Below are positions 5,242 through 56,789 of a DNA stretch of 64,000 bases, piece by piece; position 1 is the first letter of the stretch, and each line of letters begins with the position of its first letter. The stretch is from the NCBI GenBank assembly GCA_964423595.1, contig CAYRFI010000006.1, positions 8,458-72,457 of the forward strand. Direction: 5' to 3'. The DNA comes from an uncultured Thermoanaerobaculia bacterium (GTDB lineage: Bacteria > Acidobacteriota > Thermoanaerobaculia > Thermoanaerobaculales > Sulfomarinibacteraceae). The notes beneath the pieces are model-generated. The model was not told where the DNA came from, did not search any database, and worked only from the letters and a program-made list of their open reading frames with translations. The position numbers were made by a program, and so were the translations under genes.

Positions 5242-5382
5242 ACCACAAAGACACGAAGACACGAAGTACGCACCAAGTTTTTCTTAACCTGGCGATGACT
5301 GACATCGAAACGTCTGGGGATTTCGACGCCAGGTCAGAATTCTTCTTTGTGAAGACCTTTGTGCCTTTGTGCCTTCGTGGTT
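5242..5382. repeat. Long imperfect hairpin with tandem 8-nt-word arms (H7-like variant) between adaptor and second pump
   Basis: The left arm AACCAC-AAAGACAC-GAAGACAC-GAAG and the reverse complement of the right arm AACCAC-GAAGGCAC-AAAGGCAC-AAAG match at 21/26 positions. An inner stem ACCTGGCG...CGCCAGGT is present. The G-run core is weak (TCTGGGGA). Confidence 0.6.
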
Positions 5383-19229: not shown

Positions 19230-19320
19230 CCAGATACCGGATACCAGATCTACCCCGCCTCCCACTGGGACCTCATCCGCTCTCCGCATCCGGTATCTGA
19301 CATCCGGCAGCCGGTATCCC
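19230..19320. repeat. H7 element (heptad-word arms + G/C-run core), CCGGATA word type
   Basis: Arm CCAGATA-CCGGATA-CCAGATC, core CCCCGCCTCCCACTGGG, and opposite arm CATCCGG-TATCTGA-CATCCGG-CAGCCGG-TATCC. Lies in the divergent hbd/tsaC intergenic region. Confidence 0.65.
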
Positions 19321-21298: not shown

Positions 21299-21414
21299 GA
21301 ATGAGGAATTAGGAATTGGGAATTAGGAATTTCCCGACACACTTCCCAACAACATCGTCGCAAACAGGGGTGGGCGGGCGGCATTCCTCATTTCTCATTC
21401 CTAACTCCTCATTC
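21299..21414. repeat. H7 element, GGAATTA word type (type example)
   Basis: Arm GAATGAG-GAATTAG-GAATTGG-GAATTAG-GAATT, a 35-nt spacer, core GGGGTGGGCGGGCGG (21367-21381), and arm CATTCCT-CATTTCT-CATTCCT-AACTCCT-CATTC. The arms are complementary at 27/33 positions. Confidence 0.75.
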
Positions 21415-22795: not shown

Positions 22796-22817
22796 CTCGT
22801 TTGGGGTGTCCGCGAAA

Positions 22818-22919
22818 GTAATCAGTAAACAGTGACCAGTAACCAATTCTGAGACTTCGACTTCCTCCCGAGAACGGGGTTGGGGCGGGTCTGGTTACTG
22901 GTTACTTGTTACTAATTAC
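22818..22919. repeat. H7 element, GTAACCA word type
   Basis: Arm GTAATCA-GTAAACA-GTGACCA-GTAACCA, a spacer, core CGGGGTTGGGGCGGGTC (22875-22891), and arm TGGTTAC-TGGTTAC-TTGTTAC-TAATTAC. The arms are complementary at 24/28 positions. Confidence 0.75.
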
Positions 22920-23373: not shown

Positions 23374-23462
23374 GCGAAATCGGAATGAGGAATTCGGAAT
23401 TCTGAATTCCCAACCGCCCACCCCGGGAAATTTCGGATTTCGAATTTCGGATTTCGAATTTG
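23374..23462. repeat. H7 element, GGAATTC/GAATTTC word type, core in C-rich orientation
   Basis: Arm GCGAAAT-CGGAATG-AGGAATT-CGGAATT-CTGAATT, core CCAACCGCCCACCCCGGG (23409-23427), and arm AAATTTC-GGATTTC-GAATTTC-GGATTTC-GAATTTG. It begins 3 nt after the stop of the S4-domain gene. Confidence 0.75.
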
Positions 23463-32999: not shown

Positions 33000-34361
33000 A
33001 TGACGGAACCAGAACACTCCGGGTCGCTGTTTACTGACCAGACCTTCGACGACGTGGATCTTCCAGAACCGCTTCGGCGTGCTGTCGACGACCTCGGTTT
33101 TTCGAAGCTTACTCAGGTTCAGGCCGAGGTTTTTCCGATTTCACTCGCCGGTCGCGACGTCGTCGCTCAGGCACAGACCGGTTCCGGGAAGACCGCTGCG
33201 TACCTGTTGACGGTGTTTACCCATTTCTTGCGTGTTCCCCGGGAGACTCCGCCCGAAACACCGCGTGCCCTGATCGTCGCGCCAACCCGCGAACTCGCGG
33301 TGCAGATCGCGAACGACGCCGAGGGTCTCGGCCACTACGCCGGCATCCGCACACATGTCGTCTTCGGTGGGCTGGATTACCGCAAACAGCGCGAGATTCT
33401 TGAGCGTGGCACCGACCTCCTGATCGGAACCCCTGGTCGCCTCATTGATTACCATAAGAAGGGTTCGTACTCGTTGCGGAAAACCGAAATGGTGGTGATC
33501 GACGAATGTGACCGCCTTTTTGACATGGGCTTCGCCGAAGACCTGCGCTGGATTCTGCGGCGCATGCCGCACCCTACCGAACGGCAATCGATGATGTTCA
33601 CCGCCACCTTGTCGCAGCGAGTCATGACGCTAGGCTGGCGACAGATGAACGAACCTTCAGAGGTCGTGATCAACCCCGAACAGTTGACACCGGATTCCAT
33701 TCACCAGGTGCTCTACCACGTCGCCACCCGTGAGAAACTCTCTCTGCTCCTCGGTCTCCTCGAGCGCGAGGGGAGCTCGCGAATCATGATCTTCGTCAAC
33801 ACGAGGTTTCGGGCGCAACGATTGGTGGACGATCTGCGCCGCCACGGTTATTCGGCTCGCGGTCTGACGGGCAGCGTCGTGCAGACCAAAAGACTGCGGG
33901 TGCTCGACGAGTTCCGGGACGGTAAGCTCCCGATTCTGGTCGCAACGGACGTGGCAAGCCGCGGGCTCCACATCGAGGGCGTCACTCACGTCATCAATTA
34001 CGATCTCCCCCAGGACTCCGAGGACTACGTTCACCGCATCGGCCGCACAGCCCGAGTCGGCGCCGAAGGAAAGGCCATCACGCTCGCCTGCGAGGACTAC
34101 ATCTACTCCCTCGACGCCATTCAGCAATACGTCGGGTACGATCTGCCCACCGAGTTTGCCGACGACGGGCTTTTCGCCAAAGTGCGGCCGCGCGATCGCC
34201 GGCCCGCTCGCGCTGACTCTCGAAGCCCACGGCCCTCGCAATCCGGACCCAGTCAATCTCCCGGCGGTGACGGCGATTCAAAGCCCCGCAGGAGACGACG
34301 GCGGCGGCCGCGACGAAAAGGGGGCGGAGGGGGTGCCGATCAGGGAGAATCGAAAGGCTGA
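33000..34361 (+). CDS. DEAD-box ATP-dependent RNA helicase with Arg-rich tail
   Basis: Q-motif FSKLTQVQ, motif I AQTGSGKT, PTRELA, DECD (DEAD variant), TAT, and HRIGRTAR. The basic C-tail is RRRRRRPRRKGGGG. Confidence 0.9.
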   Translation: MTEPEHSGSLFTDQTFDDVDLPEPLRRAVDDLGFSKLTQVQAEVFPISLAGRDVVAQAQTGSGKTAAYLLTVFTHFLRVPRETPPETPRALIVAPTRELAVQIANDAEGLGHYAGIRTHVVFGGLDYRKQREILERGTDLLIGTPGRLIDYHKKGSYSLRKTEMVVIDECDRLFDMGFAEDLRWILRRMPHPTERQSMMFTATLSQRVMTLGWRQMNEPSEVVINPEQLTPDSIHQVLYHVATREKLSLLLGLLEREGSSRIMIFVNTRFRAQRLVDDLRRHGYSARGLTGSVVQTKRLRVLDEFRDGKLPILVATDVASRGLHIEGVTHVINYDLPQDSEDYVHRIGRTARVGAEGKAITLACEDYIYSLDAIQQYVGYDLPTEFADDGLFAKVRPRDRRPARADSRSPRPSQSGPSQSPGGDGDSKPRRRRRRRPRRKGGGGGADQGESKG

Positions 34362-34479
34362 AAGCTGTCAGCTGTCAGCCGTCAGTTTCCCACCGCCCAC
34401 CCCCTCGGGATCGTTTTGCGGAAACACGGGAAGGGAGGGTGGGTCTGATAGCTGAGAGCTGATTGCTGAGAGCTAAAAG
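34356..34479. repeat. H7 element, AGCTGTC word type, with both C-run and G-run cores
   Basis: Arm GGCTGAA-AGCTGTC-AGCTGTC-AGCCGTC, core CCCACCGCCCACCCCCTCGGG, an 18-nt loop, GGGAAGGGAGGGTGGG (four G3 runs), and arm CTGATAG-CTGAGAG-CTGATTG-CTGAGAG-CTAAAAG. It overlaps the helicase stop codon. Confidence 0.75.
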
Positions 34480-37727: not shown

Positions 37728-37890
37728 AGCTGAATAGCCATTGGCTATTGGCTTTTGGCTTTCAGCCGTCAGCTTTCCGGTATCAGCCCTCGGCACTTGT
37801 TCATCGGCAGGGAGAGCTGACAGCTGATTGCCGAGAGCTTCGCGGGGTGGGTGGGGGCGCTAACGGCTAAAAGCGAAAGGCTCACAGCTT
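37728..37890. repeat. Composite H7 element(s), AGCTGNC word type
   Basis: A long left array (GCTGAAT-AGCCATT-GGCTATT-GGCTTTT-GGCTTTC-AGCCGTC-AGCTTTC...), then GAGAGCT-GACAGCT-GATTGCC-GAGAGCT, core CGCGGGGTGGGTGGGGGCG (37841-37859), then CTAACGG-CTAAAAG-CGAAAGG-CTCACAG. Lies in the divergent SulP/queG region. Confidence 0.7.
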
Positions 37891-44108: not shown

Positions 44109-44885
44109 TTGAGAGAGCGTCTCGATCATCTCGTGAGGGAGCTGGCGAACCACGTCGAGAACCTGGTGCTCTTCGAGGTCACGGACTCGACGCACGCTCT
44201 TGCGAGGCGGATCATCGCAGAAATGGACGAGGAGAGCCAGAAGCTCGGAGCCACCCTGATCCTCGCCGACCGCCAGGAGAAAGGCGAGGGGCGGGGCGAC
44301 CGCAGCTGGGAGTCGCCGGCTGGCGGCCTCTACATGAGCTGGCTGAGGTCGGGGATCAAAGCGGAAACCATCGCCCAGCTCCCGATGCTGGCAGCCACCG
44401 CGGCCCACGACGCGATCACCCGGATCGGGGTTTCGGATGTTCGCATCAAATGGCCCAACGATATTCTGGTGGGTGGACGCAAGCTCGCCGGAATCCTCGT
44501 GTTCGCGCGACACGGTGATACGACCTGGGTGACCGTTGGGCTCGGCGTCAATCTCGAGACCACTCCGGTCATCGAAGCATCCAAAGGCCTACCGGCGACC
44601 TCGATCGGCGACCTTATCGGCGTGGGCGACGTGAGGGCCTGGAGGCACGATCTCGTCTGCACGTTTATTGATCAGCTCGATCACCTGATGGAGGACCCGG
44701 TGCCGGCAATCGATCGATGGCGAAACCTCCTGATCCAGCGACCGGGTGACGTCATCAGCGTCGTTCTCGCATCAGGGAGGTTAGTGTCCGGAACCCTCCT
44801 CGAATTCACCGAAGAAGGTTTCTTGAAGATTCGGGAAAACGGCAAAGAACGCGTCGTCACCGGCGGCGACGTCATCGAAAGCTAG
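44109..44885 (+). CDS. birA: Biotin--[acetyl-CoA-carboxylase] ligase (no N-terminal HTH)
   Basis: ADRQEKGEGRGDRSWESPAGGLYMS (GRGRxGRxW-type loop), KWPNDILVGGRKLAGILV, and a C-terminal SH3-like end. TTG start. Confidence 0.85.
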   Translation: MRERLDHLVRELANHVENLVLFEVTDSTHALARRIIAEMDEESQKLGATLILADRQEKGEGRGDRSWESPAGGLYMSWLRSGIKAETIAQLPMLAATAAHDAITRIGVSDVRIKWPNDILVGGRKLAGILVFARHGDTTWVTVGLGVNLETTPVIEASKGLPATSIGDLIGVGDVRAWRHDLVCTFIDQLDHLMEDPVPAIDRWRNLLIQRPGDVISVVLASGRLVSGTLLEFTEEGFLKIRENGKERVVTGGDVIES

Positions 44886-44988
44886 CGCCCGCCCATCCGG
44901 CTTCGCCTACCGGCTCCGTCCTGCTGACTTCGCCGTGACAAGTCGGCTACGCCGGGACAATCCCGTCCAGATACAAGATCCAAGATGG
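44886..44988. repeat. Left half of a split H7 element (C-run core + CAAGATN arm)
   Basis: CGCCCGCCCATCCGG starts right after the birA stop. The arm CAGATAC-AAGATCC-AAGATGG (44968-44988) is complementary to the arm at 45804-45831, about 0.8 kb away. Confidence 0.6.
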
Positions 44989-45120
44989 TGTCCCGTTCTG
45001 AAATAGATTGGCACACGAGTTCATCTACCCGTTCCGGTCGACAGTGCACCGGCTCTCGGGATTCCAGGTTCGTGGCCACGTCGGATGCCGGCGCCGGACG
45101 CTCGACGCACGACGGGTCGC

Positions 45121-45411
45121 TCACGATCTCGGATGGAGCAACCGCCATGTCATGACGCGGACCTCATCGAACAGCCGCAACGTTTTGCTTGCACGAGCAA
45201 CATCGACCACACCTGCATGGGCGAGGAGACGCAGGTGGCAGTCGACCTCGTTCGCCGAGCCGTACCCGATACGCCAGTGGTGTATCCGATTTCGTCCCGA
45301 TCGACCATGGCCCTCCGAGAGGTTCGCCGGGACCGAGCTCGCCGAACGAATCACTTGGTCGGCCAGGCACTTGAAAGGAGCCGGAACCCGCGTCACGAGG
45401 GTGATCGCCAT
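45121..45411 (-). CDS. Four-helix-bundle protein (23S rRNA intervening-sequence protein / Avd-like family)
   Basis: 96 aa. ADQVIRSASSVPANLSEGHGRSGRNRIHHWRIGYGSANEVDCHLRLL matches the family signature (S-I/V-P-x-N-I/L-x-E-G...GS-x-E) from memory. Confidence 0.8.
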   Translation of the reverse strand: MAITLVTRVPAPFKCLADQVIRSASSVPANLSEGHGRSGRNRIHHWRIGYGSANEVDCHLRLLAHAGVVDVARASKTLRLFDEVRVMTWRLLHPRS

Positions 45412-45467
45412 GGTCGCTGCCTGGAGGGCTTTGCGGCGGGCGATGAGGGTGCTGTCGGGGAGCGCAT

Positions 45468-45634
45468 CGAGCCGTGATCACCTCCGGGTCGTTCATACTC
45501 TCCCCAAGCTGGTGAGGCGGCCGGTGTCAAGGGTCGCGAAGCGACCGGCCACAGGCCGGCGGGCCCTTGATACCGGCCGGCTCGCCAGCTATTGCCCGCA
45601 TATTCATGAACGACCCGGAGGTGATCACGGCTCG
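45468..45634. repeat. 167-nt hairpin with perfect 29-bp terminal inverted repeat
   Basis: CGAGCCGTGATCACCTCCGGGTCGTTCAT (45468-45496) is the exact reverse complement of 45606-45634. The 109-nt interior has further pairing (GGCCGGTGTCAAGGG / CCCTTGATACCGGCC, 14/15; GGTCGC-GAA-GCGACC). Confidence 0.8.
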
Positions 45635-45787
45635 CTCCAAACCAGGCGGCCCGCTCACCGGCGCTGCCTCGTGCCGCTGCTGCCTGTCACTGCCGCTGAT
45701 CATCTCCGCCCTCGATAACCGACGCAGAGGCGATAGCTCCCCTGCGAGAACCGACAACTTCTCGCCAGAACGCGACAACTCTGATCC

Positions 45788-45831
45788 TTGGGTGGGAGGG
45801 CGGCCTTGCATCTTGTATCTTGCATCTGCTC
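45788..45831. repeat. Right half of the split H7 element (G-run core + arm)
   Basis: Core TTGGGTGGGAGGGCGG, then CCTTGCA-TCTTGTA-TCTTGCA-TCTGCTC. The reverse complement CAGATGCAAGATACAAGATGCAAGG matches the 44968-44988 arm. Confidence 0.6.
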
Positions 45832-45906
45832 TCCCCCGCTCCGATATGATTCTTATTGAACGATCACGTTCAACGGAGTTCATCCACCGCCGGTCAGGAG
45901 CTTGTT

Positions 45907-46851
45907 TTGTCGGATTCGGTAGCGCTGATTTCCCTGGTCTTCGGTAGCTCTCTGGCATCGTCTTTGTTTTTTGTGCTGTCGGCCCGGATCCTCCGACAAG
46001 CTGCCGAGAAACACCCCCCGAACGCGACAGGCATGGTCGCCGTCACCCATCTCAGCGCTGCTCTCTTCCTGCTGCCGTTCCTTCCGGCGGCAGGTATCAG
46101 CTCGCTGTCAGAGGTCCGGACGATGGCCTCCCCGTTCGTCCTCGTTCTCATCCTGCTGACGGCCGTCCTCCATCTTGCCGCGAGGCTCTTCCATTTCAAA
46201 GCCCTCAGCTTGACCGACGTGAGCCTCGTCAGCCCATTCGCCGCACTCACTCCGGTGCTGACGATCGTGACGGGGTGGGTCATTCTCGCGGAGCGTCCAA
46301 ACGCCGTCGAGCTCGTTGGCATACTGATCGTCGTCGTCTCCCTGTTGGGGCTCACCGAGGTCAAAAAGGTGTTCCAGGCGCGATCCGCGTCGAGCGCCCC
46401 TGCTGAAAAGAACAGCACCAACCTCGGCCTGTGGTTCGCGTTCCTCTCGACAGTTCCGCCGGCCTTCAAAATTGCCATCCAGAAAAAAGCCATCCTGCTT
46501 TCGAATCCGTTGACATATGCGTTGATCATGCTCTTTTTGACTGGAACGGGTGCGATGTTGATCTACGTCGCCCGCAGCCGCGGCCGCGACTTCCGAACTC
46601 AATTCCCCCCTCGCAGGCTGCGAACCCTTTTCGTCATCTCGGGTCTGCTGGCCCTGAACACACTCCTGTTCTGTGCGGCTCTGACTCTCGGACTGGCGGC
46701 TGGAATCAGCGCCATGGCCCGCATCAGCATCGTGCTTCAAGGGATCCTGGCATATTGGATCGCAGGACAAAAAACCAATTTTCGCCGCAGAATGTGGTGG
46801 GGTGTCGTGATTTTCTTCGGCTCCGTCGTCATCGGGATCGCCATCCCGTGA
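45907..46851 (+). CDS. EamA/DMT-superfamily transporter
   Basis: Ten hydrophobic segments in two EamA-like halves. TTG 45907 follows AGGAG at 6 nt. TTG 45856 is the longest in-frame alternative. Confidence 0.8.
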   Translation: MSDSVALISLVFGSSLASSLFFVLSARILRQAAEKHPPNATGMVAVTHLSAALFLLPFLPAAGISSLSEVRTMASPFVLVLILLTAVLHLAARLFHFKALSLTDVSLVSPFAALTPVLTIVTGWVILAERPNAVELVGILIVVVSLLGLTEVKKVFQARSASSAPAEKNSTNLGLWFAFLSTVPPAFKIAIQKKAILLSNPLTYALIMLFLTGTGAMLIYVARSRGRDFRTQFPPRRLRTLFVISGLLALNTLLFCAALTLGLAAGISAMARISIVLQGILAYWIAGQKTNFRRRMWWGVVIFFGSVVIGIAIP

Positions 46852-46908
46852 CTCGGTGGACCTTCGAGAAGGCCCGGATTGGGGGCAAACCTTTCCACCG
46901 ATCACGGG

Positions 46909-47910
46909 TCAGTCATGCACTGACTCGTCCGTCTCGAAGCCTGGGAACTCGACCCCGTTCTCGGAACGATTCCCCAGAAAAACCTTCAGGATCCCCTTTT
47001 TGACCATTTCTCGCCGGAACTCGCCCTCAAAATCTACTGGATGTAAATCTGTCGGCTCGAACACTTCATCTTCGTAATACCGGTCCCACCTGCCGTCTGC
47101 ATCCGCCCCAAAGCCGAAAACATCGACCTCGTCACAGACGTGCACCGCGACCATCAGGGCAATGAAACCGGTGGAGGGAAACTGTCCCTGCTCCTCCATC
47201 CAGTCCTCGTAAAGATATTTCACGAACTCCGGATGGATGATGCGCACTCGCCTGGGTTCCCAGCGAAGATCGTCTTCCACGAGAGAGAGTATCCAATCGA
47301 AAAGATCCTCGGTGTGCAGCGTCATGGGATTTATCAGGAGGAAGGCCCGCCGATCAGCCATGCCCCCTCCAAAGTCCGTGGGCCATGTTACGTGGTGGGT
47401 CGTCTTGTCCCCGACATCGGACTGAAAGTCAGCCGTGGGCGCTCGATTCACCCGAAAGACAACGTTGTGTGCATCGATCAGATTTCCGTAACCCGACCCG
47501 AGCAGGTTGCGGGACGCGCCAACAACCGCACAGATCCGCCTCGTGCGGGGACGCAAAAAGACCGGGGAGCGTCCCGAGATCCGTGAGAACATCCGCTGAG
47601 CGGCCGCCCGAGTCAAGCCTTTACGCTCCACGCGGGAAGCCCACCAATCGAACACTTCCGGCGAAACCCAGCCTTCACCGGGCTCCCAGAAGATATCCAC
47701 GCCTTCCCTGAACGATTCTGGGAATACCGTTTCGAGCCTCTGCTGCAAGGGACCCCTTATGGAGGTTTTCAGATCGCGGAATTCCGTCGGATTCGGCTCG
47801 TTCAACTCCTGGACGTCTGCTCGCTGCTGCCCAAGGACGATACATATCAAGACAGCCGCCGACACCAGCCCACTGCGACGGGGACCGTGGGATCTCATCA
47901 CCGGGGTCAT
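46909..47910 (-). CDS. GT29 (eukaryotic-type, ST3Gal-like) sialyltransferase homolog B, type-II membrane anchored
   Basis: N-terminal MTPVMRSHGPRRSGLVSAAVLICIVLG anchor. Sialyl motif L is CAVVGASRNLLGSGYGNLIDAHNVVFRVNRAPTADFQSDVGDKTTHH. Motif S is PSTGFIALMVAVHVCDEVDVFGFGAD. RYYED and HPVDFE correspond to motifs III and VS. GAGGGA lies 6-7 nt before the ATG. Confidence 0.85.
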   Translation of the reverse strand: MTPVMRSHGPRRSGLVSAAVLICIVLGQQRADVQELNEPNPTEFRDLKTSIRGPLQQRLETVFPESFREGVDIFWEPGEGWVSPEVFDWWASRVERKGLTRAAAQRMFSRISGRSPVFLRPRTRRICAVVGASRNLLGSGYGNLIDAHNVVFRVNRAPTADFQSDVGDKTTHHVTWPTDFGGGMADRRAFLLINPMTLHTEDLFDWILSLVEDDLRWEPRRVRIIHPEFVKYLYEDWMEEQGQFPSTGFIALMVAVHVCDEVDVFGFGADADGRWDRYYEDEVFEPTDLHPVDFEGEFRREMVKKGILKVFLGNRSENGVEFPGFETDESVHD

Positions 47911-47932
47911 GTCATTCCCTCGACCACGCGTG

Positions 47933-48955
47933 TCAGTCCCGTGAAGACGCTTCGGCGCCGGAATGAGGGTCCGGGCGAATCCCCCGATAGACCTTGAGGA
48001 TCCCGTTTGCTTCCATCTCCTCGAGGAGCCGGGCCTCGATGCGGGCCGGATGGAACTGCGATACGTCCTCTGGAACGTCTTCGTAGTAGCGGTCCCACCT
48101 GCCGGAGGCGTCCGCGCCGAATCCAAATACGTCGACCTCTTCGCAGACATTCAGTGCGATCATCAGAGTAATGAAGCCGGTTGAGGGATAGGTCATCCAC
48201 CCTTTCGTCCAGTTCTCGTGCAGGTACATCACGAACTCCGGATGGATGATGCGCACGCGCAGGGGATCCCAGTGAATTTCCTCGTCCACGAGGTAGAGGA
48301 TCCGGTCGAAGACATCCTTGGTGTTGGCGGTGATCGGAGTCATCAGGAGGTAAGCCTCCCTGTCGTACTGCCACTCCTCGAGATCCCGCGGCCACATCAC
48401 GTGGTGGGTCGTCTTTTCTCCGACATCGGAATCATAATCATCGGTCGGCGCACGATTGATGCGAAACACGACGTCGTGAGCATCGATCAGTTCTCCGTAA
48501 TGCGATCCGAGCAGGTTGCGGGACGCGCCGACGACCGCGCAGATCTGTCTCTTGTCGGGTGTCGAGAAGACCGACGAGTCATCCGAAATGCACGAAAACA
48601 TCCGCTCAGCGGCCTCCGGTGTCACGCCATCGATGTCGCCCTCTTCTAAGTGGGCAGCCCACCATTCATACACCTCTTGCGAGATCCAGCCGTCATGCGG
48701 ACCCCAGAAGATGTCGACTCCGTTCTTGAAAGAGTTTGGGAAGGTCGTTGCAAGTCTCTGTTGCAAGGGCCCTCTGACGGAGGTTGAGGTGCGGTCGTTT
48801 TCTCCTTTCAGATAATCATGGCTGGCTTCCGGAATCTCGTACTCAGCATCCGGATGTTCCACTACCCGTCGCGACATGAGAAAGACTGAAATCGCGACGA
48901 CCGCTGCCAGAAGCATTACGTACCAGAGATTTCTGGGTCTCATGTTGCTGGCCAT
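47933..48955 (-). CDS. GT29 (eukaryotic-type, ST3Gal-like) sialyltransferase homolog A, type-II membrane anchored
   Basis: Anchor is MASNMRPRNLWYVMLLAAVVAISVFLM. Motif L is CAVVGASRNLLGSHYGELIDAHDVVFRINRAPTDDYDSDVGEKTTHH. Motif S is PSTGFITLMIALNVCEEVDVFGFGAD. RYYED and HPARIE follow. It is colinear with paralog B. Start is 48955 or 48943. Confidence 0.85.
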   Translation of the reverse strand: MASNMRPRNLWYVMLLAAVVAISVFLMSRRVVEHPDAEYEIPEASHDYLKGENDRTSTSVRGPLQQRLATTFPNSFKNGVDIFWGPHDGWISQEVYEWWAAHLEEGDIDGVTPEAAERMFSCISDDSSVFSTPDKRQICAVVGASRNLLGSHYGELIDAHDVVFRINRAPTDDYDSDVGEKTTHHVMWPRDLEEWQYDREAYLLMTPITANTKDVFDRILYLVDEEIHWDPLRVRIIHPEFVMYLHENWTKGWMTYPSTGFITLMIALNVCEEVDVFGFGADASGRWDRYYEDVPEDVSQFHPARIEARLLEEMEANGILKVYRGIRPDPHSGAEASSRD

Positions 48956-49025
48956 TGTACATTGCGCACAGTGTCGTCCCGAATTGGGTCGCCGACGGAG
49001 GCGCCTGCCCGAGCGGCGTTTTGCT

Positions 49026-50012
49026 CTATCCCTCTGGACGGTTTTGATCGGCTCCGCGCTCGAGTTCGTAAGAAACACACTGCCCACAGACCGTCCGGGC
49101 CACCTCCCTGCGGAGATGGTCGGCTCGCAGTTCGCAAAACTTCGGCGAGTGCCAGGCGTCCATGAAGGTCATCTTCTTCAGATCCCCCATGTCGAATCTC
49201 CCGTCGTGGTCGAAGCAGCACGCGCTCAGCCTCCCGTCCCAGGTCACGTGGCCTTCTGTGAACAGCGCCCAGCAAGGGACCGGTGCCCGCATCTTGTCGT
49301 ATCTGCCGCGGTTACCACCGGTGAACACCCATCGAGTACCGTCTCGCTGCTCGATATGGGCCGCCTGGGAGTAGAGTGGGAGCGCATAGACCTCATCGGA
49401 AAAATCTCCGATCTCCTCGACGACTCGGGCCATCTTCTGACGCTGTCGCTCACCCTCGAACATGATGTATGAAGCGTACAGCCCGCAAGGGTACCCTCCC
49501 GCCTCCCGCACCCGCCACGCGTCCTTGATGTTGGAGACGATCTCGAAGTATTTTGCCTCGGGCTTCCTCGTGATGGCGGCGAAATGCTCCGGGTCAGAGT
49601 AGTTGAGCGAGAACTTGAGGCTGTCGAGGCCGGCCTCCATGCAGGCCTCGACCTTTGCCGGAGTCGAAAGCGAGCCGTTGGTGGTCAAGAAGACGTAGGG
49701 AAAACCGAGATCCTTGGCGTACCTGATCGCAGCCGGAAGCCACGGAACCAAAAAGCTCTCGCCGAGATAGAAGAGGCCGAGCTCCTCGACTCCCTCCCGG
49801 AGCAAATCGGCCACAAGCGCGTCGAAGAAGACGCGGTCGATCTGCCCGACCTCTCGCAGATGCTTGGATCTCGCGCAGAATTGACAAGAAAAGTTGCACA
49901 GGGCGGTGAGCTCGATCTTGACGGATTTTGGGCATGGCGGCGTCTCTGAGAGATACTCTTCCTTGATCTCCGTGATGTTGTCGATCCGCTCGGTGATCGA
50001 TTCTCGTGGCAT
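49026..50012 (-). CDS. Radical SAM enzyme with Cys-rich (SPASM/twitch-like) C-terminal domain
   Basis: CNFSCQFC (CxxxCxxC) near the N-terminus, the GGE-like LFYLGESF, and C-terminal cysteines PCWALF...SACCFDHDG...CGQC. Same strand as, and 70 nt upstream of, the GT29 genes. Confidence 0.85.
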   Translation of the reverse strand: MPRESITERIDNITEIKEEYLSETPPCPKSVKIELTALCNFSCQFCARSKHLREVGQIDRVFFDALVADLLREGVEELGLFYLGESFLVPWLPAAIRYAKDLGFPYVFLTTNGSLSTPAKVEACMEAGLDSLKFSLNYSDPEHFAAITRKPEAKYFEIVSNIKDAWRVREAGGYPCGLYASYIMFEGERQRQKMARVVEEIGDFSDEVYALPLYSQAAHIEQRDGTRWVFTGGNRGRYDKMRAPVPCWALFTEGHVTWDGRLSACCFDHDGRFDMGDLKKMTFMDAWHSPKFCELRADHLRREVARTVCGQCVSYELERGADQNRPEG

Positions 50013-50142
50013 CGGAAAGCCCAAACGGTCCGCCCTTCGTTGCTTCTTTTCGACTCCGCGCGCCAGACCCCCCTCCAATTATTTTAACCCCCCCAACGGG
50101 CCATACGGCACGAAGATATTGAATCTACATAGCTTTGACAAA

Positions 50143-50177
50143 GAGATACAAGATGCAAAATCCAAGATCCAATGCTC
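50143..50177. repeat. Heptad-word array (AAGATNC type), left part of a composite element
   Basis: GAGATAC-AAGATGC-AAAATCC-AAGATCC-AATGCTC. This is the same word family as the arms at 44968 and 45804. Confidence 0.55.
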
Positions 50178-50219
50178 TCAACCCAAGGCGTTCAGGGCTG
50201 TCCAGTCCTGATTCTATGA

Positions 50220-50327
50220 GGAGCCACCTTTAGCATTGTTGGCCTCAGCGATGGAATGACTTCGGCGACGGGATTCCAACAATGCAAAAGATGGCACCTG
50301 GCGCTACTCGATGAAGCGCTTTTCTCC
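50220..50327. repeat. P element, diverged copy nested between two heptad arrays
   Basis: GGAGCCACCTTTAGCATTGTTGG ... CCAACAATGCAAAAGATGGCACC, with tail TGGCGCTACTCGATGAAGCGC. Confidence 0.6.
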
Positions 50328-50345
50328 GGAAGCGCTGTGAGAACC

Positions 50346-50400
50346 CGCGGGTGGGCGGATCGAGTATCGAGCATCGAGTATCGGGCGGGTCGTGGGGCGG
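50346..50400. repeat. G-run core + heptad-word array (ATCGAGT type), ending at the dsbD stop
   Basis: GCGGGTGGGCGG, then ATCGAGT-ATCGAGC-ATCGAGT-ATCGGGC-GGGTCGT-GGGGCGG, with additional G-runs at the end. Confidence 0.55.
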
Positions 50401-52173
50401 CTAGGGCACCGCCTGTAAGCGTCCGAGGAACTTCGCCGGTGGCTCGAAACCGGTGATCCGGAAGACCTCCTCACCGCCCGAAAAGACGATCACGGTCGGC
50501 ACGCCCAGCACCCGGTAGGTGGTGGCCAGCTTCTGGTTCTCCCCGCTGCTCCGCGTCAAATCGACCTTGAAGCGTGAGTAGTTCTCGAGCAGGGCGCTCA
50601 CTTCGGGCGCCGGAAAGGTCTTCTCGTCGAGCTCGCGGCACGGTGCGCACCAATCTGCGTAGAAATCGAGAATGACCCGCTCTCCCCCGGTGACAGCGGC
50701 TTTGACCGCGCCAGCATCATATGGCTGCCAGGCCAGGTGTTCGCCCGACTCGCCCACCGTTGTTCCGCGAAGGAAAACCACCGGCGCCATGACCACTCCG
50801 GCCACCAGTGTGGCGGCGCTCAGGACCCGCATCACACGATCGATCGTCGGCTGCTCGTGACCTGTGCGGTCAATGACCAGGAGGTAGAGCGCACCGAAAA
50901 CCAGGACCGCCGACATCAACCAGCGCCCCGAGTCGCCGGGCATCAGCGGCGCCGCGAAGTATGCAGCCATCGCGACCAGGATGACGCCGAAAACCCGTCT
51001 CACCCCGATCATCCACATGCCGGAGGCCGGCAGCTTGTTGACCGTTCCAGTAAAGGTGCCCAGGATCAGGTACGGCAGACCGAGACCCAGAGCGAGGGTG
51101 AAAAAAAGAACAAAACCCAGGAACGCATCCCCTCGCTGGCCGACATAGGTGAGGAGGCCGACCACGAATGGACCGATGCACGGTGCCGCGACAAAGCCCA
51201 TCACCAGGCCCATGATGAGGGCGCCGAAAACGCCACTCCTTCCACCTGACGCGCGTTGTGCCCAGGCCGGTACCCGCAGCTCCCACAGCCCGAACATCGA
51301 GGTCGAGAGCGACAGCAGGACGACCACGATCAGGCCGACAACCCAGGGGCTCTGCAGGGCGCTACCGAAGATCGCGCCGCTGAGTGCGGCGAGAACGCCG
51401 AGCACCGAATATGTGAAGGCGATTCCCATGACATAGGCGAGGGCAAGGGGGAAGGCGCTGCCTTCGCGATCCTTCGTCTGCTGAGTGAAGAAGCCAACCG
51501 TGATCGGGATGAGCGGGAAGACGCACGGTGTCAGATTCAGCGCAAGCCCGGCCAGAAACACCCCGATCAAGAGCAGCGGCAGGGATTTCGAGCCGAGGTC
51601 CGAAGGCCTTGGAGAATCGCCAGACCCGGAAGGCCGCACGGAAAGCTCCTTGAAGAACTCCTCGTCCGTGGGTCTTGACGAGGTGCCGGGGGGCGCCACC
51701 GTCACATCGATGCCGGTCCGAACCTCCTCCGGAGGTAGGCACTGGGTGTTGTTGCAGGCCTGAGCGGTGACTGCCACGCGCAGGCGATGATCGCCGACCG
51801 CGGTCCCGGGAACGACCAGGCCGGCGAGGATGACCGCGCGGCCCTCCCACACCTCGATCGGCGTGTCGGAGAATTCGAACTCGAGGGCCTGACCATCCGG
51901 AAAACTGACCACCGGCACCGGCCAGCCTTCGGGCAGGATGAACTCGACGGTCGTCGGCAGCGAAAACTCGTCACCAGGGTCATCGGTGTTGACGTGCCAC
52001 CCGCGCTTGATGGTCAGGGTAACCGCCAGCCGCACCTCGTCTCCCGCAACCAGTGGGGTCCGATCAGTCAGCAGCCGAACCTTGAACACCGGCTCGGTAT
52101 CCAAGCCCTGTCCGGCGGCCGGGCCGGCAGCAAAGATCGTCAACAACATCAATATCAGGATCGATCTCTTCAT
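50401..52173 (-). CDS. dsbD: Thiol:disulfide interchange protein DsbD-type (N-domain + CcdA-like TM core + thioredoxin domain)
   Basis: MKRSILILMLLTIFAAGPAAG signal. The TM core carries LTPCVFPLIP and AAPCIGPF cysteines. The C-terminal thioredoxin fold has FYADWCAPCRELD. Confidence 0.9.
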   Translation of the reverse strand: MKRSILILMLLTIFAAGPAAGQGLDTEPVFKVRLLTDRTPLVAGDEVRLAVTLTIKRGWHVNTDDPGDEFSLPTTVEFILPEGWPVPVVSFPDGQALEFEFSDTPIEVWEGRAVILAGLVVPGTAVGDHRLRVAVTAQACNNTQCLPPEEVRTGIDVTVAPPGTSSRPTDEEFFKELSVRPSGSGDSPRPSDLGSKSLPLLLIGVFLAGLALNLTPCVFPLIPITVGFFTQQTKDREGSAFPLALAYVMGIAFTYSVLGVLAALSGAIFGSALQSPWVVGLIVVVLLSLSTSMFGLWELRVPAWAQRASGGRSGVFGALIMGLVMGFVAAPCIGPFVVGLLTYVGQRGDAFLGFVLFFTLALGLGLPYLILGTFTGTVNKLPASGMWMIGVRRVFGVILVAMAAYFAAPLMPGDSGRWLMSAVLVFGALYLLVIDRTGHEQPTIDRVMRVLSAATLVAGVVMAPVVFLRGTTVGESGEHLAWQPYDAGAVKAAVTGGERVILDFYADWCAPCRELDEKTFPAPEVSALLENYSRFKVDLTRSSGENQKLATTYRVLGVPTVIVFSGGEEVFRITGFEPPAKFLGRLQAVP

Positions 52174-56697: not shown

Positions 56698-56789
56698 GAA
56701 GCAGTCAGCAATCAGCAATCAGCTTTCAGCTCCCCCACCCACCCCTGGCGCCTTGAATGCTGACGGCTGATAGCTGATAGATAAGAGCT
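56698..56789. repeat. H7 element, AGCAATC word type, core in C-rich orientation
   Basis: Arm GAAGCAGTC-AGCAATC-AGCAATC-AGCTTTC-AGC, core TCCCCCACCCACCCCTGG (56731-56748), and arm GCTGACG-GCTGATA-GCTGATA-GATAAGA. It starts 1 nt after the LuxR-type gene stop. Confidence 0.75.

Follow-up and report, generated by a model that had tools for sequence, protein, structure and literature searches.

A probable decayed mobile cassette with a four-helix-bundle gene inside a heptamer-arm hairpin of a Thermoanaerobaculia contig

The 64,000-nt stretch of DNA analysed here (the window; contig CAYRFI010000006.1 of an uncultured Thermoanaerobaculia bacterium) contains a 970-nt spacer with a biotin-protein-ligase-like (birA-like) gene on one side and an EamA gene on the other. 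Within this spacer the remains of a four-helix-bundle (4HB) gene of the PF05635 family lie, together with a palindromic leader, between the two arms of a hairpin composed of tandem 7-mers (hairpin A). Positions 44989-45783 probably represent a decayed copy of a small mobile cassette devoid of a transposase, which would have been mobilised in trans into the target words of heptamer arrays. An initial annotation of this DNA had proposed that the gene travels as a cassette aimed at hairpin loops. Related genomes bear out the first half of that proposal, since they contain near-identical copies at unrelated loci, multiple copies per genome, inverted ends and target duplications; the second half is not borne out, as the landing sites of the relatives reveal.

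Cassettes in related genomes and their landing sites

A first genome scan with the repaired window protein found no relative. An alignment-based scan, with one genome per species, returned 80 loci (fetched loci of relatives are given L-numbers below), nearly all of them titled as metagenome-assembled genomes (MAGs) of Acidobacteriota (Thermoanaerobaculia, Thermoanaerobaculales, 'Ca. Sulfomarinibacteraceae', 'Holophagae'), with a few other or unassigned labels. Single MAGs possess at least 7-10 cassette copies. In one MAG (ERZ25039603) an identical protein is encoded at four unrelated loci, and the four cassettes, of 923 bp, exhibit 0-3 differences and dissimilar flanks. The inverted-repeat ends are of type A (CACTGCTGTCCAAAACA ... 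CTGTCTTGGACAAGAGTG) or type B (GGTTCATCCGGGAAAACGTGAG ... CTCACGGAAATCCGGATGAGCC; short form GGTTCATCCGG... / ...CCGGATGAGCC). Read in the orientation of the gene, a cassette would consist of a terminal repeat, a GC-rich non-coding part, the leader hairpin, the 124-codon gene, a short tail and the second terminal repeat.

Target duplications were counted in 26 non-redundant cassettes with both ends. Those of type B are always 8 bp long (five exact, three with one mismatch; consensus NAAMKTTN) and those of type A always 9 bp (four exact, two with one mismatch; consensus AT.C.G.AT), the consensus being palindromic for both end types; over all 26 cassettes, 9 were counted with an exact duplication and 6 more with a single mismatch. 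Because steps of 8 or 9 do not keep register with a period of 7, the periodicity of the arrays alone cannot yield these duplications, some of which include array-variant bases (ACGCTGGAT in L017, ATACTGGAT in L030). A gene-less type A element of 456 bp (L017:3861-4316), which resembles a MITE (a miniature transposable element with inverted repeats), is found inside an ATCCAGN array adjoining a full cassette and bears its own 9-bp duplication, ATCCAGAAT. Inverted ends, duplications of fixed length and palindromic consensus, and a passenger gene without a transposase together characterize a mobile insertion cassette (MIC) by the published definition; one such element, MIC231, is mobilised in trans by the transposase of IS231A (PMC3913671).

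By the same token the present cassettes would be moved in trans by DDE-type transposases encoded elsewhere. The type A ends with their 9-bp duplication are perhaps reminiscent of ISAs1-like elements, and the type B ends with their 8-bp duplication perhaps of ISL3-like ones.

The cassettes are strongly associated with heptamer arrays. With a flank called 7-periodic when its lag-7 identity is at least 0.62 over 28 nt, this is true for 54% of cassette flanks versus 0.6% of random 28-nt windows from the same loci, and at least one such flank is found in 21/26 cassettes. The array units differ among cassette copies within one genome, which indicates that the arrays do not travel with the cassette. 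Positions relative to the hairpins vary: inside one arm (L029), at the outer edge of a complete hairpin (L002, L072, L001), within a purely direct array (L046), or, where no duplication is present, between arms in inverted orientation (L024, L036 and the window). This variety argues that the target is a palindromic word recurring in the arrays, not the hairpin loop as such; the relatives' cassettes enter heptamer arrays with 8- or 9-bp duplications, often in one arm or beside a complete hairpin. Insertion thus appears to be sequence-directed and of transposase type, and it would generate 8-bp (type B) or 9-bp (type A) duplications of palindromic words that recur in AT-rich 7-mer arrays.

Three type B cassettes stand head-to-tail, approximately 810 bp apart, at L078:2971-5000 (MAG CAWDGW01), where CCGGACGAGCC and AAAAG precede the left end of both the second and the third. 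Type A cassettes of L027, L030, L036, L040, L044 and L046 match the Rfam candidate sRNA Acido-Lenti-1 (RF01687) on the opposite strand, at about -205..-159 from the ATG, at threshold level (37.2 bits versus a gathering score of 37). The window copy gives no match to RF01687, and a copy outside a cassette scores 46.9 bits at L036:654-700.

The copy in the window

The features of the cassette and of hairpin A are as follows.

45121-45496, minus strand: 4HB gene, frameshifted 124-codon copy, with its ATG at 45496-45494
45468-45634, minus strand: leader hairpin of the cassette, 167 nt, two stems
45468-45496 with 45606-45634: outer stem of the leader, 29-nt perfect arms, the 3' arm being codons 1-10 of the gene
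45507-45533 with 45564-45590: inner stem of the leader, 27-nt arms with 89% pairing, holding the boxes GTCAAGG(G) / CCCTTGAC(A)
45640-45745, minus strand: non-coding upstream region of the cassette, in which short GC-rich repeats containing CAG occur, from alignments with other cassettes
44989-45000, plus strand: tentative cassette end TGTCCCGTTCTG, inverted copy of 45766-45777
45746-45779, minus strand: tentative other end, two direct copies of GTTGTCG(C)GTTCT (reverse complements of 45766-45779 and 45746-45758)
44968-44988, plus strand: left arm of hairpin A, 7-mers CAGATAC AAGATCC AAGATGG, from an inverted-repeat search
45804-45828, plus strand: right arm of hairpin A, CCTTGCA TCTTGTA TCTTGCA TCTG, from the same kind of search
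44886-44898, plus strand: C-run core CGCCCGCCCATCC, directly 3' of the birA-like stop
45790-45803, plus strand: G-run core GGGTGGGAGGGCGG, directly 5' of the right arm

All of the arms, cores, gene and hairpin that had been described at this locus are present, and the 0.8 kb between the arms indeed contains just the 4HB gene and its leader, with no transposase gene. The longest remaining open reading frame (ORF; 45121-45411, minus strand, 96 aa), originally taken for an entire gene, scores 52 bits against PF05635 (cut-off 33.8) and 52.7 bits against TIGR02436 (cut-off 24), so that its family is confirmed, but it aligns only to positions 31-103 of the PF05635 profile and is not intact. Homologues number 2609 at E <= 0.001, with identities of 72-82%; those inspected are mostly 117 or 124 aa long, the 124-aa forms starting MNDPEVIM[FLI]DALP. 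From 45496 the minus strand of the window reads ATGAACGACCCGGAGGTGATCACGGCTCGATGCGCTC, that is MNDPEVIT, and after codon 8 one extra base near 45470-45472 shifts the frame, the family sequence (LDALPDSTLIARRKALQAAT-M...) resuming in the other one. The conserved second ATG is ACG in the window (45475-45473), while the corresponding methionine (M8) is invariant in 33/33 aligned homologues. Having lost this ATG and gained one base, the window copy, as assembled, is a pseudogene, and the 96-aa ORF is the tail of a broken 124-codon gene. An exact-sequence look-up of this ORF gave no match, which is expected of a frameshifted copy.

The family as a whole is under purifying selection (median ratio of nonsynonymous to synonymous substitution rates 0.19, 709 pairs). 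Its closest intact full-length homologue, P0001 (82% identical), was modelled with AlphaFold in place of the window copy, and the result reveals four helices with a mean confidence (pLDDT) of 90.5. Helix 1 (residues 18-34 of the model) is mostly absent from the 96-aa ORF. Foldseek matches the model to the pentameric 2GSC (template-modelling score, TM, 0.80/0.88) and to 2RLD, both of which the profile also recovers by sequence; Avd of a diversity-generating retroelement (DGR), 4DWL, is more distant (TM 0.71/0.81).

A comparable lesion is found elsewhere. L062, L064, L071, L072:3643 and L078 (three copies) share a 1-nt loss that kills the second ATG (ACCATGTCC to ACCAGTCC); these copies, at least seven, belong to one MAG, and the damaged spot is the same as in the window. 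As an apparently broken gene is still multiplied there, the protein must be dispensable in cis, unless translation begins at an unusual start.

The 167-nt hairpin has a folding energy of -142.5 kcal/mol (z = -9.7). The initial annotation listed it next to the gene; it is present, and its outer stem is perfect, but it is not a separate object, being the gene's own leader: the gene's first 29 nt form its left arm, and an inverted copy of them, upstream, forms its right arm. Every type of cassette examined has this two-stem design ahead of the gene. Across 40 aligned cassettes, 27/41 predicted pairs show compensatory double changes, for instance CCGGGTCG/CGACCCGG to CCTGGTTG/CAACCAGG or CTGTGTG/CACACAG, and the boxes GTCAAGG(G) and CCCTTGAC(A) are near-invariant. 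The hairpin is a conserved structured leader that includes the start codon and may act either in RNA (in translation control or processing) or in DNA. The peptide which it encodes, MNDPEVI..., is disordered in the AlphaFold model, as would suit a stretch whose sequence is dictated by base pairing of the nucleic acid. The window's stem is even lengthened across the mutated second-ATG region (CCGTG...CACGG), and the leader has retained its pairing while losing its coding capacity. No Rfam family corresponds to it; a permissive scan gave plant and animal miRNA-precursor models only, far below threshold, a generic effect of long hairpins.

The near-invariant boxes place a TTGACA hexamer (-35-like) on each strand, pointing away from the middle of the palindrome, at 45528-45533 / 45564-45572 in the window and likewise in all cassettes. 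No -10 partner for them was found at the locus. They could represent divergent promoters or a protein-binding palindrome. The leader box CTGTCAAGGG also occurs in the hairpin loop of a cassette-free birA flank (L093:3870-3885), where it may be due to chance or be what is left of a cassette since lost.

At the blastn level the window copy is homologous to other cassettes from -204 to +382 relative to the ATG. The arms stand at -308 and +508; the family boundaries fall at -300..-450 and +470..+570. The candidate ends TGTCCCGTTCTG and CAGAACGCGACA form a 12-nt inverted pair that is 11/12 complementary, and the motif TGTCSCGTTCTG has two exact matches in the window, which are those at the candidate ends, and no match in any fetched locus. 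When 44989-45783 are removed, the junction (CCAAGATGG joined to ATCCTTGG) is a near-palindrome; the insertion point would thus lie 6 nt ahead of the G-core, where the left arm ends on its inner side.

That arms of this kind should pair by chance is ruled out by shuffling. CAGATACAAGATCCAAGATG (44968-44987) and CATCTTGTATCTTGCATCTG (45809-45828) are complementary at 18/20 positions, which makes them the best inverted repeat of the spacer once the leader hairpin is set aside, and a 20-mer pair with at least 18 matches arose in 1/300 dinucleotide shuffles. Both arms are 7-nt periodic with the unit AAGATNC, and the motif AAGATNCAAGAT occurs seven times in the window versus 0.42 expected. The 821 nt separating the arms were rightly singled out as unusual: the other hairpins measured in the window have 17 nt (23376-23461) to 186 nt (50143-50383) between their arms, so that hairpin A is exceptional. 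A C-run at the far left and a G-run at the right had also been reported. Both exist, but their placement is not symmetrical, the C-run lying 70 nt outside the left arm and the G-run immediately inside the right one; the order "G-core then arm" is also found in the window hairpins 21367-21414, 22876-22914, 34431-34474 and 50347-50383. The close relatives L090, L092-L096 and L100 likewise have a C-rich core immediately behind the stop codon of birA, from which it follows that the C-run is part of the locus and not of the cassette.

Orthologous loci, obtained by a metagenome scan with the BirA-like protein, indicate that hairpin A predates its cargo. Neither a 4HB nor an EamA gene is found at the birA flank of the twelve closest loci (50-87% identity). 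Heptamer arrays follow the birA stop in most relatives of at least 67% identity (L090, L092-L094, L096, L098, L100), usually behind a C-rich core and in several cases with a unit related to GAT[GAT]CNN. L094 (76% BirA identity) is an empty site of the kind whose discovery had been suggested as a check: it possesses the C-core, AAGATACGAGATTCGAGATGT, an 83-nt loop, GATCTCGTATCTCGTATCTCGCATCTGG and the G-core, with no 4HB gene. Its right arm is 17/19 identical to that of the window and its left arm 16/20 (by eye). Since the same arms thus occur at the same birA flank without the gene, the hairpin came first. In the window the cassette would then have entered a hairpin already present downstream of birA, at the inner margin of its left arm, and driven the arms 0.8 kb apart; the gene would have decayed later, through loss of its start and a frameshift, while the palindromic leader remained perfectly paired. 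Even among relatives with 83-87% protein identity the birA-flank units differ, so that the arrays turn over rapidly.

Objections and competing readings

Several observations weigh against this reconstruction. No transposase or autonomous element with matching ends was found in the window or in the fetched loci, which total approximately 0.93 Mb and include some 3 kb of flank; the latter yielded, with type A or B ends, only 4HB cassettes and the one gene-less derivative. All of the related genomes are MAGs, so that some copy numbers or junctions could be affected by assembly. In the window itself there is one cassette copy in 64 kb; its sole end repeat is the 12-nt inverted pair, which is possible by chance, such a pair being expected, by our estimate, about once per 970 nt; no direct repeat abuts the candidate ends as a target duplication would; and none of the fetched cassettes is homologous to its outer 100 nt or so at either side, for which reason its exact ends and mode of arrival are put forward as tentative. 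Finally, the window copy has inverted rather than direct flanks, as do L024 and L036, which simple transposition does not predict; later recombination between the arms, or another route of insertion, may be involved.

Our guess is that the 4HB protein is cargo which serves the element and is not a mobility enzyme. An alternative, to which we would give a small chance, is that it is a working part of a system of mobility or maintenance linked to heptamer hairpins, for example an Avd-like ring that binds nucleic acid and recognises the arms or the leader.

It is rather improbable that the unit resembles an intervening sequence (IVS) of 23S rRNA to the extent of being aimed at hairpin loops, with the arms forming an RNA stem cut by RNase III as in those IVSs. 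Such a reading would account for the cassettes that lie between inverted heptamer arms (the window, L024, L036 and L170) and for the 37-nt stem, 76% complementary, into which type B ends and flanking heptamers can be combined, and the IVS of Coxiella offers an S23p ORF, a 28-bp terminal stem and heptameric repeats. Most cassettes with defined ends, however, exhibit direct 8/9-bp array duplications and stand in one arm or beside complete hairpins. No rRNA match is found at the 80 loci of the genome scan, and no consensus promoter (sigma-70-type) or intrinsic terminator was found at the window locus; the Rfam scan of the window at gathering level gave one tRNA and nothing else, hence no rRNA.

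Two further readings appear slightly less probable still, and to an equal degree. According to one, the heptamer arms belong to the element itself, which would carry them as long terminal repeats or leave them as footprints of its own making, rather than being a pre-existing target. In its favour, arrays abut 21/26 cassettes, the four near-identical copies in ERZ25039603 are all flanked by the unit AACGTTN, and each end type is tied to its own unit classes. Cargo-free hairpins nevertheless exist, with the same arms, at the orthologous site (L094) and elsewhere in the window, and the arrays that flank the 923-bp cassettes vary in length and in variant bases although the cassettes themselves hardly do. 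Duplications of 8 or 9 bp are moreover unable to build arrays of period 7, and on this ground the construction of arrays by repeated insertion and excision is ruled out.

According to the other, the cassette passes from one heptamer hairpin to another not by transposition but by homologous recombination or gene conversion, for which the arm repeats would provide the shared sequence. The inverted flanks without duplication in the window, L024 and L036 are congruent with this, as is a 5.4-kb islet of the window (see below) bracketed by two hairpins of like unit, which suggests that the arrays are prone to recombination. The marks of a transposase speak against it (a fixed duplication length for each end type, a palindromic target, sharp inverted ends, and a gene-less derivative with its own duplication), and copies in the same genome sit in arrays of unrelated units.

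That the gene is the Avd accessory protein of a DGR, as had also been raised, can be dismissed for this locus: the fold is Avd-like (4DWL, 8UB7; TM approximately 0.7-0.8, identity 10-11%) and no other Pfam family occurs as often as PF05635 in the vicinity of DGR reverse transcriptases (PMC10053308), but the neighbours are a biotin ligase and EamA, no reverse transcriptase is seen in the inspected 43-51 kb or beside the cassette, the gene tables of related loci hold no PF00078 gene, there is no template/variable repeat pair (no match longer than 18 nt links the spacer to any other part of the window), and the closest structures are the non-DGR 2GSC and 2RLD.

Known systems and the surrounding locus

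By comparison with MICs (MIC231 of Bacillus cereus; the qnrD/qnrS2 mic elements) and MITEs, the related genomes display all of the sequence marks together with a gene-less MITE-like derivative, whereas the window copy itself is without a demonstrable duplication. Unlike MICs, the present cassettes carry a PF05635 4HB cargo and a covarying leader hairpin that holds its own start codon, they have at least two end types sharing a homologous interior, and they show a strong insertion bias to heptamer arrays. For the preference in site the nearest analogues are insertion sequences aimed at palindromes of the REP/BIME type (repetitive extragenic palindromes and the mosaic elements built from them), such as IS1397 and ISPpu9/ISPpu10 (PMC1525189, PMC12288879). 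There, too, an intergenic family of repeated hairpins provides the preferred landing sites; those insertion sequences, however, encode their own transposase and recognise REP targets of fixed sequence, whereas the cassettes are non-autonomous and the targets are tandem 7-mer arms of varying units.

The parallel with 23S rRNA IVSs, drawn in the initial annotation, is a real likeness, although it holds as an analogy only. The IVS of Coxiella burnetii contains an S23p ORF within a 28-bp terminal stem, with two to three tandem heptameric repeats (GACAGAT) next to the ORF that vary among strains; the ORF is decaying, and IVSs have been hypothesised to be remnants of transposition or mobile elements (PMC4990558). 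With ORF-bearing IVSs (Coxiella, Leptospira) the present element shares the protein family, enclosing inverted repeats, heptameric repeats and a decaying ORF, the terminal stem being represented here by the 18/20 complementary arms. Unlike an IVS, the cassette lies outside rRNA genes, and its relatives show target duplications and many copies per genome. With the Avd of DGRs the likeness is confined to the four-helix-bundle fold, the family being linked to Avd in CDD (PMC10053308).

We found no earlier description in the literature of mobile PF05635 cassettes or of such heptamer hairpins. S23p/PF05635 proteins are very common and, to our knowledge, have no known function outside DGRs. Their ORFs have been known chiefly from 23S rRNA IVSs; where these come from, and whether they are mobile as suspected, has been a matter of debate since the early 1990s (PMC4990558). 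The locus and its relatives provide sequence-level evidence of an S23p-type gene as the payload of an actively multiplying cassette, and the idea of the IVS as a mobile element becomes testable in a defined system. If the protein were indeed an active part, ORF-bearing 23S rRNA IVSs would be the same class of element residing in rRNA helices, and a 30-year-old question as to their origin would be settled. In addition, some of the repeats that populate the intergenic regions of Acidobacteriota abundant in marine sediments are explained, and a strongly covarying leader with a start codon, outside Rfam, is defined. Taken alone, the window copy is a dead relic and only modestly interesting; its value resides in the family that it revealed.

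The genes and hairpins that surround the cassette are the following.

44109-44885: birA-like gene (biotin protein ligase, PF03099), stop TAG at 44883-44885
45856-46851: EamA-type transporter gene
46909-48150 and 47933-49087: sialyltransferase-like genes
49026-50078: radical-SAM gene
50143-50383, plus strand: hairpin B, sister of hairpin A but uninterrupted, its arms 186 nt apart, no cargo
50143-50172: left arm of hairpin B, GAGATAC AAGATGC AAAATCC AAGATCC
50347-50358: G-core of hairpin B
50359-50383: right arm of hairpin B, ATCGAGT ATCGAGC ATCGAGT ATCG
21299-21414; 22817-22914; 23376-23461; 34357-34474; 50143-50383; 56699-56780: heptamer-arm hairpins in the window
37737-37763 with 37844-37858: array and G-rich core, which look like another hairpin of the family

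The hairpins of this family, which is intergenic and genome-wide, consist of an AT-rich 7-mer array, often a C-rich and/or a G-rich core (CCCACCGCCCACCCC / GGGTGGGCGGG), and a complementary array. The unit differs from site to site (GAATTAG, AGTAACC, GAATTCG, AGCTGTC, TTGGCTT, AAGATCC, AGCAATC). Further candidates are present at 19230-19249 and, with a period of 8, at 5244-5379. The density of heptamer arrays was also compared between relatives and distant taxa; the two are only 2-5 fold apart, and the measure was dropped as uninformative.

In most relatives birA is directly followed by a dsbD-like gene, which in the window starts at 50401. The left arm of hairpin A is 16/18 identical to that of hairpin B, and by position it is hairpin B that corresponds to the one hairpin which relatives have between birA and dsbD. 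The window thus contains an extra islet of approximately 5.4 kb (44886-50400) with the 4HB cassette, EamA, the two sialyltransferase-like genes and the radical-SAM gene, flanked by hairpins A (44968-45828) and B, both of the AAGATNC unit. Heptamer hairpins accordingly look like candidate hot spots at which genes are gained and lost. Inward of the C-core, and ahead of hairpin A's left arm, CCGGCTTCGCCTA forms a 13-nt tandem repeat of 2.8 copies (44897-44934), which is not found in the orthologous spacers of relatives. Of the radical-SAM gene, L095 retains just a 5' remnant.

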